Positions 313 through 42,277 of a DNA stretch of 64,000 nucleotides are shown here, in pieces; position 1 is the stretch's first letter, and the number at the start of each line of letters is the position of its first letter. The notes below the pieces were generated by a model, which was not told the origin of the DNA, searched no databases, and saw nothing but the letters and a program-made list of their open reading frames with translations. A program made the position numbers and the translations under genes. This DNA comes from a phage. The DNA is taken from the sequence record PX880102.1, one strand, 5' to 3'.

Positions 313-1272
313 TCACTTCCACTGCATTTCGCATGCTAATTGAATGAAAAGATATGCTAAATGTAATTCCGTATTAGCCGCAATTCCGTGATACTGGTTA
401 TTTTCACCAACAATTTCATACATACGAATAATACTTTGCGGAGTTACGCGTGTATAGATTTCTTCGGCAAGTTTACCTACGAACCACGAATAATCAGCTG
501 CATATTTTGGCGCTAAAGCTCTAAGCTGTTTAACATCTTTATTTTTGAGAGATTCAAGAACATCATCAATAGCACCACGATCGTTAGTAACCAGTGATAA
601 AATACCAGCATCCAAAACACCTTTAGATGAATAACTATCGAGCTCACCAATAGTTTTACGAAAATCAGGAAAATTCTTTTTAACCAAAGCTGCTACAACT
701 TTCATATCAGCTATAGCAATTCCTTCATGCTTGCAGATTTCAGTCAATCGACGAATCATCTGCTTCATCATTTCAATTTTATCTTCATCGGTCGGTTGAC
801 CGAATGTAATAACTCGGCAGCGTGACTGAAGCGGTTTAATAATACCATCAATATTGTTAGCAGTAATAATAATACTACAGTTTGAACTATAAGCTTCCAT
901 AAAGGAACGAAGATGTCGCTGAGACTCTGCTAACCCTGAGCGGTCAAATTCATCAATAACAATTACTTTTTGACGACCATCAAATGAAGCTGCACTAGCA
1001 AAATTAGTCAAAGGACCGCGAACGAAATCAATTTTACAGTCTGATCCATTCACAAACATCATATCAGCATTTACATCATGACACAATGCTTTTGCTACAG
1101 TTGTTTTACCTGTTCCTGGAGAAGGAGAATGAAGAATAATATGTGGAATTTTACCTTTACTTGTAATAGATTTAAAGGTTTCTTTATCAAAGGCGGGAAG
1201 AATACATTCATCGATAGTAGATGGACGATATTTCTGTTCAAGAATGTGTTCTTTTTCATTTACAGTAATCAT
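313..1272 (-). CDS. 44: clamp-loader large subunit gp44 (AAA+ ATPase)
   Basis: 319 aa from ATG at 1272 (track start is upstream TTG); Walker A GTGKTT; RBS GAGGAA; matches recalled T4 gp44. Confidence 0.93.
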
Positions 1273-1302
1273 AATTTCCTCATTCAAGTTTTAGTGTAAA
1301 TT

Positions 1303-1320
1303 TAAGGGCCGAAGCCCTTT
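1303..1320 (-). promoter_or_regulatory. intercistronic RNA stem-loop (UUCG tetraloop on transcript) between genes 45 and 44
   Basis: AAGGGC-CGAA-GCCCTT palindrome; no U-run follows, so more likely a stabilising/processing hairpin than a terminator. Confidence 0.45.
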
Positions 1321-1321
1321 A

Positions 1322-2008
1322 TTAAAAATCGTGGGTAGAATCAGCTTCAAGAGCTACTACATAATTCGCGTGTTCACCTTCAAATTTAGCAGCACCCTGT
1401 TTACCTTTTGCCCAAAGCAGAAGTTTGTAATTTCCTGGTTGCATTTTCATATTTGCCATATTGATAATGAAATTAAATGTATTTTCACCATCATAATCAC
1501 CAAGAGTCAAAGAATATTTAACGCGGGTCAAAGCAGAATCTTCTACTTTATTAAAACCGTTAATTACGATTTTACCTTCTTTTACTGTGATAGCAATTGT
1601 ATCAATCTGCAGACCGCGAGATACACGCAACAGCTGCTGAAGGTCTTCAGCTTTAATTTCAGTAACAACAGATGCTACCGGGAATGGAATTGGTTTATTA
1701 GGAGCAACTACTGTGCTCGGATCGGCTGCTGGCCAAAAAATTGTTGAACGAGCATCAGCAATTTTAATATTTCCATCTTCTGACTGGGAAATTTCTGCAT
1801 CGTCATTAACTAGAGACAGAATACCGAGAAAACCGTTCAAATCGTAAATTGCTACATCAAAATCAATAGTGTCAGAAATATTTGCTTCCGCATAAGTTGT
1901 ACCATTAACTGCGCGAGTCATAATAAATTGACCAGATTTAAGCATAATGCCAGAGTTAATAGTAGCGAAATTTTTAAGCAGAGCAGTAGTATCTTTAGAC
2001 AGTTTCAT
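1322..2008 (-). CDS. 45: sliding clamp gp45
   Basis: 228 aa, ATG start, RBS GAAGGAAA; sequence matches recalled T4 gp45. Confidence 0.93.
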   Translation of the reverse strand: MKLSKDTTALLKNFATINSGIMLKSGQFIMTRAVNGTTYAEANISDTIDFDVAIYDLNGFLGILSLVNDDAEISQSEDGNIKIADARSTIFWPAADPSTVVAPNKPIPFPVASVVTEIKAEDLQQLLRVSRGLQIDTIAITVKEGKIVINGFNKVEDSALTRVKYSLTLGDYDGENTFNFIINMANMKMQPGNYKLLLWAKGKQGAAKFEGEHANYVVALEADSTHDF

Positions 2009-2035
2009 GTAATTTCCTTCAATTCAAATGAGATT

Positions 2036-2062
2036 TAATTTTATAACTAATTTAATAAAGCA
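2036..2062 (-). promoter_or_regulatory. MotA-dependent middle promoter upstream of gene 45
   Basis: MotA box TGCTTTA, 12-nt spacer, -10 TAAAAT on minus strand. Confidence 0.5.
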
Positions 2063-2063
2063 A

Positions 2064-2453
2064 TTAACGATTAAAATCGGCAGCAATTGTTTCCGCAACA
2101 ATTTGAGCAGCAACAATTAGACGTTCATCTGCATTGCCACAATAATCGTCTTCAAGGCGTTCACCACATGAAGTCATAATAAATTTAGCACCAGCATTTA
2201 AAGATTCTGTCGTATGTTTGCGCATTAGTTCAATCCATTTATTACTTACTTCACGATCGATAGCTTCATAATACGCATGACGAGCAGGTGCAGATTTAAT
2301 TTTGTTCTGAATAACTTCCATCGCGTTATCAGAAAGAGACAAAACCCATGCTCGACGAATTTTATTTTGGTTTTGTGGATTTGATTCAGAACGCACGTGT
2401 TTTGGCTGAATATCTTTTACATCAACAGTATAATTCACAGTAATTTTAGTCAT
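2064..2453 (-). CDS. rpbA: RNA polymerase-binding protein RpbA
   Basis: 129 aa, ATG start; position and length as T4 rpbA. Confidence 0.8.
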
Positions 2454-32640: not shown

Positions 32641-33114
32641 TTATTTGAATGATTTGACGTACTGAATAGAGCCTTTACTATTCACGAAAGCGATTTTACC
32701 ATTTTTGTTATACATTGTAGCAGTACGCTGATAACCATAAGTTTGTTTACCAGATTGATAACCAACTAATGCAAAATTATCTTCGCCCATTTTATTCTGT
32801 TTGGCGCGGATACGTTCATGACCGTGCGCCATAAGAACCTTAGCATCGCCAGTTGAAATTGATCTACGAGTTTTTTCATCTTCAACTGTATTAACAAAGT
32901 CGTCAAATGAATCAAATTTAGCATGAGATTTATTATACAGTTTTCCATCTACTGCATAATTATATCCCTGTACATCCATCTCAACTTCTGTACCATCATC
33001 CAATACAGCAGTAATTTTTTGACCTTTTTTAAATTTCAAAAGATCAGTAAAAGATTCAGCAATAATTTGAGAATTAATAGCTGCTTCAGTGATAAATTCT
33101 TGATATGTTTTCAT
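32641..33114 (-). CDS. internal-protein-like virion protein with capsid targeting sequence (IP-A)
   Basis: 157 aa; N-terminus MKTYQEFITEA matches T4 IP capsid-targeting sequence MKTYQEFIAEA; ATG start. Confidence 0.7.
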   Translation of the reverse strand: MKTYQEFITEAAINSQIIAESFTDLLKFKKGQKITAVLDDGTEVEMDVQGYNYAVDGKLYNKSHAKFDSFDDFVNTVEDEKTRRSISTGDAKVLMAHGHERIRAKQNKMGEDNFALVGYQSGKQTYGYQRTATMYNKNGKIAFVNSKGSIQYVKSFK

Positions 33115-33123
33115 ATATTTCCT

Positions 33124-33540
33124 TTAAATGTAAATATTTTTGCCGTAGTATTTATACCAGTGTGGCTTCATTAAAATTTTTTCATTGAGTCGTTGTTGAC
33201 TCAATTTAATAGCTGATTTGCATGGGTTATAATCATTTTTCCATTCTGCTGAAATATCGCTGATGTCAGGAACTTCAGTATCTTTTATACTGAACCCACG
33301 TTTTAAGCATTCCGTTATAATGTCTGATTGACGCTTTCGCAAAAATTCTAACTTATCGTAAAAGAACGTAACATGACCAGAACCTAAAATAAACTCGGAA
33401 GATATTTTAAAATCTTTAACCCGTTTACCATTTGCCACATGTTTACGAACTATACCAAAAACACGTGGCAATTCACGGTATTCTGCGATTAAATGTTGAT
33501 CAGCAAGTTCAGATACTAAAGTCAAATTAATACGAGTCAT
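33124..33540 (-). CDS. denV: endonuclease V (pyrimidine-dimer DNA glycosylase)
   Basis: 138 aa; [17 protein letters not shown]...WYKYYGK matches recalled T4 DenV. Confidence 0.92.
33149..33156 (-). promoter_or_regulatory. late promoter box upstream of IP-A
   Basis: Exact TATAAATA on minus strand 35 nt upstream of IP-A ATG, inside denV coding sequence. Confidence 0.5.
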
Positions 33541-37648: not shown

Positions 37649-37912
37649 TTATTTCATATTATTGAAATATTCTTCTGCGATTTCGTCGTTATCGTGGTAA
37701 ACTTTAGAAGACAGTTTAACATAACCTTCTGCTGTGAACATGTTAATCACAACCTTTACAGTATACCACTGTCCGTCTTCATTACCCATTACTGCGTAAG
37801 TTTCAAACATCGGATGGTCAGGACCGATAACTTTAATATCATTCACTGTACGACCGAAATCTTCTGAAACGCATTTCATAAAGAAGTTGAACAGTTCGCC
37901 GTAATTATCCAT
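37649..37912 (-). CDS. hypothetical protein (e.8-like)
   Basis: Track ORF begins inside the promoter; ATG at 37912 with GGAGAA RBS gives 87 aa. Confidence 0.55.
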   Translation of the reverse strand: MDNYGELFNFFMKCVSEDFGRTVNDIKVIGPDHPMFETYAVMGNEDGQWYTVKVVINMFTAEGYVKLSSKVYHDNDEIAEEYFNNMK

Positions 37913-37986: not shown

Positions 37987-38122
37987 CGTTTTGTGAAAAA
38001 TTTTTTAAAAAGTTTTAGGGAATTCTAGGGCAGGGATGGGCAATTAAAGGATAGGATAATATATTATAAAGGGTAGAAACTAAATGATGCCTAGAGAGGC
38101 CTGGAAAGGCCTAGATACCAAA

Positions 38123-38148
38123 AAGCCCCAACCTTTTGGTCGGGGCTA
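38123..38148 (-). terminator. intrinsic terminator downstream of IP-B
   Basis: AGCCCCGACC-AAAA-GGUUGGGGCU followed by UUUUU on minus transcript. Confidence 0.65.
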
Positions 38149-38154
38149 AGAATG

Positions 38155-38628
38155 TTATTTGATTTGTTTAGCAGACCAAATGCGGTCTTTAATAATTTTT
38201 TGAATGTCTTCAACATACTCAAGAGAGTGAACATGTGGATTATCTTTGAAACTATAAGCACGGGCTAACTTTTGGCCTTCGGTTTTGATTACTAAAAGCT
38301 CTTTAAGGATAGCTTCATATTTAGAGATAATTCCTTTAACGATATTTTTTTCTTGTGCAGCTTTAGGATCTGCTTTAGGAGCAGGTTTACCCGAAGCCTT
38401 TGCAAAAGCAGCGCCAGTAGCAACTAGACTTTTCCAGGCCATACTAACCGCATTTCCCGTAAATCCTTCTGCTTTCATGTCGCGAGCAAATTGGAATCGT
38501 GATTCGTCAGAAGCATCTTTATAGGAATATTTACCCGCTGCAATGGCTGCTTTTGCGACAGCTTGAATTTCGGTGCTAGATGCTTCATTTAACACCGCTT
38601 CATTTAAAAATTGAGTATATGATTTCAT
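38155..38628 (-). CDS. internal-protein-like virion protein with capsid targeting sequence (IP-B)
   Basis: 157 aa; N-terminus MKSYTQFLNEAVLNEA resembles IP capsid-targeting sequence; Ala/Lys-rich; RBS AGGAAA. Confidence 0.65.
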   Translation of the reverse strand: MKSYTQFLNEAVLNEASSTEIQAVAKAAIAAGKYSYKDASDESRFQFARDMKAEGFTGNAVSMAWKSLVATGAAFAKASGKPAPKADPKAAQEKNIVKGIISKYEAILKELLVIKTEGQKLARAYSFKDNPHVHSLEYVEDIQKIIKDRIWSAKQIK

Positions 38629-38668
38629 CTTATTTCCTGTTTTAATTCGTGGATTTAATATACTACTA

Positions 38669-38676
38669 TATTTATA
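38669..38676 (-). promoter_or_regulatory. late promoter box upstream of IP-B
   Basis: Exact TATAAATA on minus strand about 40 nt upstream of IP-B ATG. Confidence 0.55.
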
Positions 38677-38680
38677 CTAA

Positions 38681-38706
38681 AAAGCCCCAACCTTTCGGTC
38701 GGGGCT
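38681..38706 (-). terminator. intrinsic terminator ending the tRNA/stable-RNA transcription unit
   Basis: AGCCCCGACC-GAAA-GGUUGGGGCU followed by UUUUU; near-identical to 38123..38148 hairpin. Confidence 0.65.
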
Positions 38707-39010
38707 AAGCCTTGCGGCAACCTTGTCGGGGTTCCACCTGCTAAGGCAAGTGTTTGTACGAAACGCCGGGATTCGAACCCGGTTATTAAGCAGTTGACGC
38801 TACTCAATATTTTTAAAAGGCCATATCTCGACCATATCCGAACGTTCCGTCAAAAACGCTACTCGGCTTACGGCAAAGATATTTCCTCGAATCGATAATT
38901 CTGTGCGCCGTTTCTGCTGTGATGTAAGAGGGCATCAATAAACGCAAGGATTATTAACGCAATTCCTTACTCAGGGAACATCAGTCCGACAACTTACCGG
39001 TAGCGACCCG
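38707..39010 (-). ncRNA. structured non-coding region after tRNA cluster (possible stable-RNA genes)
   Basis: No credible ORF; tRNA-like T-arm CCGGGTTCGAATCCCGG at about 38764..38781; repeated GAGTAGCGT motifs; position matches T4 species 1/2 RNAs by recollection. Confidence 0.35.
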
Positions 39011-39015
39011 GTTTC

Positions 39016-39366
39016 TTAATATTCTTTTAAAGCATAAATCTGTTTACGGCGTTCACGCCATAAATCAATTGCTTCATACGCGGATTCAACATTTCGAATT
39101 GGACGGCATTTATATAAAGATTTGTGATTTTGATATTGCGTAGATAACGGAATTTTATCTAAAAGGTCTTTACGTTCAAAGTATTCGTAACCATCTAAGC
39201 CAAATGAACGATTTTTGAGAAATTGCCAATGACCAAATTCGTTTTGAATATAAATATAATCCGCGTGTTGATAAAGTAAATTAATTTCACGAAATGAGAT
39301 ATGTTTTTCATATTCATTGAAGTAAAATGTTAAATCATGAACTACTAAATAAACATTACCTTTCAT
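39016..39366 (-). CDS. hypothetical protein encoded inside the tRNA cluster
   Basis: 116 aa, ATG with GAGGA RBS starting 17 nt after tRNA-Arg 3' end. Confidence 0.55.
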   Translation of the reverse strand: MKGNVYLVVHDLTFYFNEYEKHISFREINLLYQHADYIYIQNEFGHWQFLKNRSFGLDGYEYFERKDLLDKIPLSTQYQNHKSLYKCRPIRNVESAYEAIDLWRERRKQIYALKEY

Positions 39367-40336: not shown

Positions 40337-40945
40337 TTATTTATTACGTGAAAAAGACTGTTCTATCAATTCTGGACACTTTCGTTCTATCCATTTTCTA
40401 GCTTTTTGTGGGCTTATACCTATTATTTTAGCAGCTTTACTAACCCATCCAAATTTAGAATAATCGATTTTAACTAATTCTTCGTAAATTTCATCAGTTA
40501 AAATCTTTTCATTAATATTTACCAGTAAATGATATAATTTATTATCATTAGCAATTTTAATGAATCTTTTATAGTTTCCGCCTTTACTTAAACCTAATGA
40601 AGTAATTGCAGATGATATAGTAGCCGAATTTAATAACGCGTTTAAAATTTCTTCATCACTAACATTATAACGCTTTTTATTATTTTTAATATTTTTACCA
40701 GCAAAAGTATCAGTTTGCGAATGGCAGTTTGGACATAATAATCTTAAATTAGATTTAAGATGATTTTTGTTATTTCCATCAATATGGTCTAATTGCAGAA
40801 CAATATGCTTATTTTGCCATTTTGAAATTTTACAAATTGCACACTCATATGGAAAAATATTTTCTTTTATTATTTTGTCTTTCAGCTTTCCTGTACTAAA
40901 ATTTGGATGTTTTCCTTCAAAAATTTCAGCTAATTTAGTATCCAT
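40337..40945 (-). CDS. HNH-family endonuclease (free-standing homing-endonuclease-like)
   Basis: ATG at 40945 gives 202 aa (track start is TTG at 40969); motif HIVLQLDHIDGNNKNHLKSNLRLLCPNCH plus upstream CAIC; stop 6 nt before tRNA-Leu. Confidence 0.8.
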   Translation of the reverse strand: MDTKLAEIFEGKHPNFSTGKLKDKIIKENIFPYECAICKISKWQNKHIVLQLDHIDGNNKNHLKSNLRLLCPNCHSQTDTFAGKNIKNNKKRYNVSDEEILNALLNSATISSAITSLGLSKGGNYKRFIKIANDNKLYHLLVNINEKILTDEIYEELVKIDYSKFGWVSKAAKIIGISPQKARKWIERKCPELIEQSFSRNK

Positions 40946-41055
40946 AATATAATTCCCAATTATTAACAAAGGCTCTTAAGCAAGAACCCTTGATGATAGA
41001 GGGTATTAATCAGTGCGATATGAGTTAATAATAACAAATAATTCTTAAAGCATAT

Positions 41056-41989: not shown

Positions 41990-42277
41990 TTACAAAAGAT
42001 TTTTAGCAATAATCTTGAGATGTGCCGCAGAAATGTGTTTAGCTTTAAACAACGCAGTTTCTTCAGCAGGAGAGATAATGATTGTAGCACCATCCTTTTT
42101 AGCAGACCACCCATCACCTAGGTAAACAGTACCTTTGATTTCTTCGCCATCAACCAAGCTAATCATTGGTTTACCTTCTCGTCCTTTATTTGCTTTAATA
42201 ACTTCAGAAGTAAGAGTAGCTTCAGTAATAGTAGAAACCGGGGTAGTTGTAGAAGTAAACTCTTTGAAAGTTTTCAT
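41990..42277 (-). CDS. ipI: internal protein I (IPI; anti-restriction, virion-packaged)
   Basis: 95 aa (T4 IPI precursor length); N-terminal CTS-like MKTFKEFTS; position beside 57B; RBS AGGAAAA. Confidence 0.8.
   Translation of the reverse strand: MKTFKEFTSTTTPVSTITEATLTSEVIKANKGREGKPMISLVDGEEIKGTVYLGDGWSAKKDGATIIISPAEETALFKAKHISAAHLKIIAKNLL

Follow-up and report, generated by a model that had tools for sequence, protein, structure and literature searches.

A putative internal-protein gene in a repeat-flanked cassette between rnaC and e.8 of T4-like phages

The internal proteins (IPs) of T-even phages, such as IPII, IPIII and Ip4 to Ip9, are small, basic, Ala/Lys-rich, non-essential and patchily distributed, and their mature parts are unrelated to other IPs. 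They carry a leader of about ten residues, in which positions 4 and 7 are aromatic and positions 8–10 form an L/I-x-E motif. The first ten residues of T4 IPIII suffice to package foreign proteins into the head; residues 4 and 7 serve targeting, and residues 8 and 10 (L/I-x-E) serve processing by gp21 (PMC9026906). In 2025, Ip1, Ip2 and Ip3 were each reported to inhibit a distinct GmrSD type IV enzyme, Ip2 and Ip3 without cross-protection, and the three proteins have no homology to each other except for the N-terminal leader (PMC12373910). IPI* inhibits GmrSD, and IPIII, even leaderless, is active in the cytoplasm of infected cells. The shuffling of diverse leader-bearing IPs as cassettes via repeated regulatory elements is an established concept (Repoila 1994 as summarised in PMC4122927; PMC9026906). 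Here, we describe an open reading frame (ORF), termed gene A, in a 64-kb stretch of phage DNA (record PX880102.1; hereafter the window) that is 96–97% identical in this region to the Tequatrovirus phages CrRp10, wV7 and KIT03. Gene A is probably a previously unnamed member of the T4 IP class. Unlike the known IP loci, which adjoin e/denV and 57B, it occupies the gap between rnaC and e.8, where T4 and PST have no IP, and this gap is very probably a third polymorphic IP locus of the T-even phages.

Gene A (38155..38628, minus strand) encodes a putative IP of 157 residues with the N-terminus MKSYTQFLNEAVLNEA and belongs to the RB32ORF133c family. Its codons 1–10 (38599..38628, minus strand), MKSYTQFLNE, form a putative capsid targeting sequence that ends in the L-x-E motif of the prohead protease. 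The initial annotation of the window, made from the sequence, had likened this N-terminus to the T4 leader, and the likeness extends to all four mapped T4 residues: Y4, F7, L8 and E10. The conservation of the leader is established, with the pattern M-x-x-[Y/F]-x-x-F-L-x-E kept in every gene A homologue, including those that are 36–44% identical, across five T4-like genera; MKFKEFLAE, MLKFNEFLAE, MINFSDFLNE and MKSFSSFLNE are examples. Comparison of the gene A family by hhalign with T4 IPIII, T4 IPII and gene B, a second leader-bearing family of the same gap, aligned the first ~12 residues and nothing further. BLASTP found no relationship to ipI, ipII or ipIII, and the reading of gene A as an orthologue of one of these genes was rejected. 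A strict form of the leader pattern selected two ORFs in the six frames of the window, gene A and Ip4. A leader regular expression, run over regions of ~14 kb from eight genomes and over shorter stretches from seven others, recovered IPII, IPIII, Ip4, Ip6, Ip7, Ip9 and genes A and B; the other matches were limited to gp154 of Yersinia phage fHe-Yen9-01, which is B-like, and a pair of unnamed ORFs at the ipII/ipIII locus of phage 132.

A leader of this kind could in principle be carried by a late cytoplasmic accessory protein that is never packaged, as a vestige or a by-product of cassette shuffling. IP cassettes recombine via shared regulatory and 5′ sequences, and such exchange could spread a leader passively (Repoila 1994 as summarised in PMC4122927). 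We consider this explanation very improbable for gene A. Its leader DNA differs from that of ipII, ipIII and Ip4 at about 10 of 33 nucleotides, so it is at the protein level that the motif is maintained, and it was not recently copied. The motif is also kept in five genera while the mature protein falls to about 40% identity, and a T4 leader of ten residues is enough to package foreign proteins (PMC9026906).

The gene A leader departs from those of IPII and IPIII in having a doubled L-x-E motif. Codons 11–15, AVLNE (38584..38598, minus strand), provide the second site through a tandem 15-nt duplication: the direct repeat GCTTCATTTAA, at 38582–38592 and 38597–38607, generates FLNEA-VLNEA with two consecutive L-x-E sites. 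In the hhalign comparison, AVLNE is an insertion relative to the other leaders, and homologues that do not have the duplication, including those of JK45 and the Klebsiella phages, display a single site. The doubled motif recurs in gp154 of fHe-Yen9-01 and in one ORF of the phage 132 IP locus. By its sequence, the mature gene A protein probably begins with A16; a cut at E15 would give a product of 142 residues, with a computed mass of 15.5 kDa and an isoelectric point (pI) of 9.6. The two unnamed leader-bearing ORFs of phage 132 (MZ417521) lie at 824..1084 and 1563..1844 of the stretch examined and encode 86 residues (MKMYQEFIIEADAKG) and 93 residues (MKTYSEFLSESILNEATD), the latter being the one with the doubled L-x-E.

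Other IPs are encoded in the window. Ip4 (IpIV internal head protein, DUF7412; 32641..33114, minus strand) is, coincidentally, also 157 residues long, and its TATAAATA late-promoter box lies at 33149..33156, within the 3′ end of denV. The gene order there is e - denV - Ip4, versus e - ipIII - ipII - denV in T4, and the phage has neither ipII nor ipIII. An orthologue of IPI (41990..42277, minus strand; PF11634, IPI_T4, E 2e-53) is found at the classical locus adjoining 57B. With this orthologue, the leader-bearing proteins of the phage number at least three (IPI, Ip4 and the gene A product). Gene A would belong with IPI/IPI* (PF11634) to the presumed class of leader-bearing, late-made, injected proteins, but differs from IPI in having no Pfam match, BLASTP alignment or PDB neighbour and in its predicted helical, two-domain build.

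The anatomy of the gene A cassette is established. A ribosome-binding site read from the sequence, AGGAAA (38638..38633, minus strand), has its AGGA core 6 nt before the ATG, and an exact T4 late-promoter box, TATAAATA, lies 41 nt upstream of the ATG (38676..38669, minus strand). Upstream of the box is an intrinsic terminator (38678..38706, minus strand) with a 10-bp stem, a GAAA loop and a U-run, a homologue of the one hairpin that T4 has downstream of rnaC; the hairpin itself, AGCCCCGACC-GAAA-GGTTGGGGCT+UUUU, runs from 38706 to 38683. Gene A is followed by a second intrinsic terminator (38119..38147, minus strand), in which the stem is the same, the loop is AAAA and a U-run follows; its hairpin, AGCCCCGACC-AAAA-GGTTGGGGCT+UUUU, occupies 38147..38124. 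Both hairpins are GC-rich, with ten pairs each and a U-run, and score as terminator-like, with folding energies of -19.5 kcal/mol (downstream; z = -4.1) and -20.3 kcal/mol (upstream; z = -3.5). The pattern AGCCCCRACC-N4-GGTYGGGGCT that describes them has exactly two matches in the window, where 100 shuffles gave an expectation of 0. Each hairpin forms the core of one copy of a 36-nt direct repeat; the two copies are identical at 34 of 36 positions and spaced 559 bp apart. Copy 1 (38115..38150) forms the cassette boundary on the e.8 side; copy 2 (38674..38709) forms the boundary on the rnaC side and takes in the final 3 nt of the late-promoter box. The ORF, the exact late box and the two near-identical hairpins had all been placed correctly in the initial annotation. 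With late promoter, ribosome-binding site, ORF and terminator, gene A is, as read from these signals, a self-contained unit. The upstream terminator is predicted to end the tRNA/rnaD/rnaC transcription unit and to keep early transcription out of gene A. About 140 nt past the downstream hairpin is an early-promoter-like site for e.8, seen in the window scan and in the fPS-2 annotation.

The late-promoter box alone does not speak for late expression of gene A. In the AT-rich window, TATAAATA occurs 14 times against an expectation of 11.2 +/- 3.3, a count at chance level that weighs against our interpretation, and its enrichment was rejected as stand-alone evidence. Since the box is not enriched, its evidential weight lies in position and conservation. 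The homologue in Klebsiella phage KP1 is preceded by the same junction, hairpin-UUUUAG-TATAAATA, with a different stem sequence, and Ip4 in the window has the box at a distance similar to that of gene A.

The polymorphism of the rnaC–e.8 gap is likewise established by comparison with relatives. In T4 the hairpin occurs once, and no gene lies between rnaC and e.8; the initial annotation had stated that T4 has no IP gene between e.8 and the tRNAs. In the alignment with T4, the left flank and left repeat copy are continuous, as are the right repeat copy and right flank; therefore, the window differs from T4 by exactly one 559-bp unit, made of one repeat copy, the promoter, the ribosome-binding site and the ORF. 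The suspicion that the hairpins might be ordinary, unrelated terminators is dispelled by this result, as they are a duplicated element whose single T4 copy falls exactly at the junction. The site is also empty in T2, RB10, PST, ACG-C40 and phage 132. It holds gene A alone in the window, wV7, fPS-2 and RB32, gene B alone in ESh24, and A and B in tandem in UTI-E2, where a canonical hairpin separates the two genes and a variant hairpin follows B. Gene B, which the window does not have, encodes a leader-bearing protein of 187 residues and pI 9.4 that starts MKTYAEFLTEAAKLPS and belongs to the RB14ORF136 family; within the stretches examined it lies at 484..1047 in UTI-E2 and at 905..1468 in ESh24. 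To survey the state of the site, we took 60 evenly spaced records among those matching the T4 empty-site sequence. Of these, about 9 were empty, 22 carried the additional 559 bp and one carried gene B by itself; in about 11 the insert was larger or arranged differently, and the remaining records, from more distant phages, matched in rnaC only.

The breadth of the family bears on whether gene A is a gene at all. In the phage collection, gene A DNA was found in 495 records and the protein in 512, all labelled hypothetical, and gene B was found in 165 phage records, again all hypothetical. The corresponding protein clusters, with 216 members for gene A and 151 for gene B, are labelled hypothetical or uncharacterized, although Ip4 is named in the same genomes. 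That no label goes beyond "hypothetical protein" would suit the view that the ORF is not real and that the region consists of a duplicated terminator with spacer DNA. Against this, the full-length ORF is conserved in ~470 records, homologues that are 36–80% identical keep the frame, the leader and the domain structure, the ribosome-binding site is proper, and the protein matches phrog_2280 (E 1e-60), a PHROG of function not known. Conservation effectively refutes the non-gene view, to which we assign next to no probability. As a genuine gene, A is dispensable and patchily distributed, with frameshifted alleles in some phages, and its mature region is unlike IPI, IPII and IPIII.

In Mosigvirus-like, Jiaodavirus and Winklervirus phages, too, gene A homologues lie downstream of the tRNA/stable-RNA cluster. 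KP1, a Jiaodavirus, carries one at the equivalent position, and in Kosakonia phage Kc304 (Winklervirus) the homologue is downstream of the tRNA cluster. In JK45, a more divergent E. coli/Shigella phage, the homologue has 73–76% protein identity and is bracketed by two similar, lineage-specific hairpins (~1365-1400 and ~1905-1945 on the reverse complement), both CCCCTTCC...GGTYGGGG with two internal mismatches. The repeat copies thus co-vary by lineage, with CCCCGACC in Tequatrovirus and CCCCTTCC in JK45, which suggests either that the JK45 copies were homogenised by gene conversion or that a recent duplication occurred in each lineage. In fHe-Yen9-01 (Tegunavirus), where no tRNA lies within the stretch examined, the homologue is gp153; gp154 (189 residues, MLQYNEFLKESLISEA, loosely B-like) directly precedes it, and the pair (1222..2337 of the stretch) shares one TATAAATA box and one terminator. 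The order gp154–gp153 is opposite to that of UTI-E2, where A precedes B, and is consistent with cassette shuffling.

We propose, from the arrangement of the repeats, that homologous recombination between the copies of the terminator repeat accounts for the gain or loss of gene A. An insertion by this route had been suggested at the outset, and the part that stands is the presence of a duplicated repeat at the exact boundary of the insertion or deletion (indel). The direction may have been the opposite: because homologues sit at the site across several lineages, gene A appears to be an old resident, and a deletion between repeats is at least as likely an explanation of the empty T4 site as ancestral emptiness. 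The arrangement recalls the PeSL mobile cassettes and the hyperplastic ipI locus, where repeated terminator/promoter elements bracket small accessory genes and the indels of close relatives fall exactly at those elements (Arbiol 2010; Comeau 2014, PMC4122927). PeSLs, however, combine a stem-loop with an early promoter, whereas the gene A repeat is a terminator stem-loop adjoining a late promoter, and the gene A site lies outside the loci described for IP shuffling (PMC4122927). The 2006 record of RB32 (DQ904452) describes RB32ORF133c as "flanked by 34 bp imperfect direct repeat" and Ip7+Ip9 as "flanked by 43 bp direct repeat", and gene A thereby resembles Ip7+Ip9 in its direct-repeat flanks. 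The same record names Ip4, Ip5, Ip7 and Ip9 and does not call ORF133c an IP. Because both repeats are noted there, the flanking repeat is not new as an annotation detail, and such repeats are typical of IP cassettes.

The body of the gene A protein resembles IPII and IPIII in composition, as the initial annotation had remarked. It contains 16.6% Ala and 13.4% Lys and has a pI of 9.46; the corresponding values are 16.0%, 15.0% and 9.33 for T4 IPII and 14.0%, 13.5% and 9.54 for IPIII. Past the leader, the sequence has no similarity to these proteins, and it differs from them further in its two domains. A conserved N-domain (~residues 17–75), with the invariant stretch GKYSY...E.R..F..D....GF, is joined by a Pro/Lys/Ala linker to a C-domain; the Klebsiella, Yersinia and Kosakonia phages have an unrelated domain in place of the latter. 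A conserved N-domain with a swappable C-domain suggests, at the level of sequence, a common scaffold with a specificity module. Together with its patchy presence and frameshifted alleles, the exchangeable C-domain gives gene A the hallmarks of an arms-race accessory gene. An AlphaFold model of moderate confidence (pLDDT 73.5, pTM 0.40) is all-helical, with six helices in two domains.

Searches for relatives outside the family were negative. Pfam and NCBIfam contain no family for gene A, and exhaustive hidden Markov model searches of 1.8 and 5.8 billion proteins, which gave 13 representatives and 13 clusters, respectively, confined the family to T4-like phages and connected it, even remotely, to no known family. 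Foldseek found no significant neighbour in PDB or BFVD except the protein itself, and a sequence-profile search of PDB found none. Matches to Shikimate_dh_N (E 0.12) and, in the PDB sequence search, to a designer PPR protein were dismissed as noise. As far as its sequence can be read, gene A gives no pointer to mechanism.

With this composition, a packaged gene A protein might play a physical role, as a basic Ala/Lys-rich filler, a charge neutraliser or DNA organiser, or an aid to ejection. The pI of 9.5 and the resemblance to IPII and IPIII agree with such a role, as do the predicted all-helical structure, the flexible Pro/Lys/Ala linker and the lack of a recognisable enzymatic or inhibitor fold. 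Gene A is nevertheless missing from many relatives that are fully viable, T4, T2 and PST among them, and in some phages it is frameshifted. A substitution of gene A for IPIII was not seen either, as the two genes show no anticorrelation in eight genomes, and RB10, T2 and ACG-C40 have neither. IPII and IPIII, themselves basic, proved to be specific GmrSD inhibitors (PMC12373910), and an exchange of the C-domain is easier to reconcile with adaptation to particular targets than with bulk neutralisation of charge. We regard a purely physical role as unlikely.

We favour, as a likely course of events, that the gene A product is a packaged, processed and injected IP. Early in infection gene A would be silent, the rnaC terminator just upstream stopping read-through from the tRNA operon, and late in infection it would be transcribed from its own TATAAATA promoter. 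The first ~10 residues (MKSYTQFLNE) would bring the protein into the scaffolding core of the prohead, where the prohead protease gp21 would cut after L-x-E, probably at E15, to yield a basic product of ~15.5 kDa. The mature protein would stay in the DNA-filled head and be injected with the genome. Its likeliest job would then be to disarm a host defence acting on incoming DNA, the leading candidate being a modification-dependent restriction system of the GmrSD type, by analogy with Ip1, Ip2 and Ip3.

Several observations weigh against parts of this scheme, in addition to the chance-level count of late boxes. The one virion proteome found for a phage with the gene, that of SH7 (gp129), lists 14 proteins and includes neither gp129 nor any known IP, and is too shallow to settle the matter (PMC5238451). 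Neither the sequence (Pfam, BLASTP) nor the fold (Foldseek, PDB) of gene A has any likeness to IPI* or a known inhibitor. Members of the family also occur in phages whose DNA is expected to be modified differently, which makes a GmrSD target an argument by analogy. If gene A is an IP, an anti-defence function is perhaps somewhat more likely than not, reasoning from the characterised IPs; a GmrSD-type target in particular would be a weaker proposition. Gene A is accordingly best described as a good, unproven candidate for an injected anti-defence protein. A fuller picture, which we offer tentatively and consider doubtful as a whole, would make the gap a third, unrecognised IP hotspot with at least two unnamed injected families, A and B. 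Gene A would be a modular effector, with an N-domain common to five genera and exchangeable C-domains, directed against a defence that Ip1–3 do not block, be it a further, new subtype of GmrSD or another kind of first-response system.

The surroundings of gene A follow the T4 minus-strand order: tRNA cluster, rnaD, rnaC, e.8, e.7 ... e. The stable RNAs rnaC (38757..38895, minus strand; 98.6% identical to T4 rnaC by blastn) and rnaD (38903..39016, minus strand; 97.4% identical to T4 rnaD by blastn) are the last members of the tRNA cluster (38757..39016, minus strand, for the pair), and e.8 (37649..37912, minus strand; 96.6% identical to T4 e.8) is the next gene downstream. Gene A had been described as lying beside the tRNA cluster; it does adjoin rnaC/rnaD, but the first tRNA is ~750 bp from its start, past a further ORF. 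Rfam has no family for either hairpin or for rnaC/rnaD, and reported the tRNAs alone. An ORF of 116 residues (39016..39366, minus strand; phrog_3355, RB69ORF150c-like, function not known) is inserted between rnaD and tRNA-Arg; it is present in T2, ACG-C40, wV7 and UTI-E2 and missing from T4, RB10 and PST, which makes its site another indel hotspot within the stable-RNA cluster. Directly after tRNA-Leu is an ORF of 210 residues similar to HNH-type endonucleases (40337..40969, minus strand; motif ...CPNCHSQ...), at the place where T4 and wV7 carry tRNA-Gln, and ARAGORN found no tRNA-Gln there. ACG-C40 is arranged likewise, with its ORF annotated as similar to the T5 HNH endonuclease. This ORF may represent the replacement of a tRNA gene by a homing endonuclease.

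None of the databases checked names gene A as an IP. Among the papers searched, none mentions RB32ORF133c, although an older paper may do so, and the gene A sequence is not among the supplements of Silas 2025. What is new is the recognition of gene A as a probable IP family and of rnaC–e.8 as a probable IP locus; the cassette concept and the RB32 repeat annotation were already known, and the result would not surprise a T4 specialist. IPs are the first strike of the phage, arriving with the DNA before any phage gene is expressed. All three T4 IPs inhibit different GmrSD enzymes (PMC12373910), which makes any new IP family a ready-made probe for a variant of host defence yet to be identified. 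As leader-bearing proteins, genes A and B put a third IP locus on the map and provide two testable anti-defence candidates. Roughly 500 sequenced T4-like phages carry gene A, and many of these are candidates for therapy or biocontrol. The combination of leader motif, late box and terminator repeat offers a simple search rule for more IPs, and the domain-swapped C-terminus of gene A could show how injected inhibitors evolve specificity.

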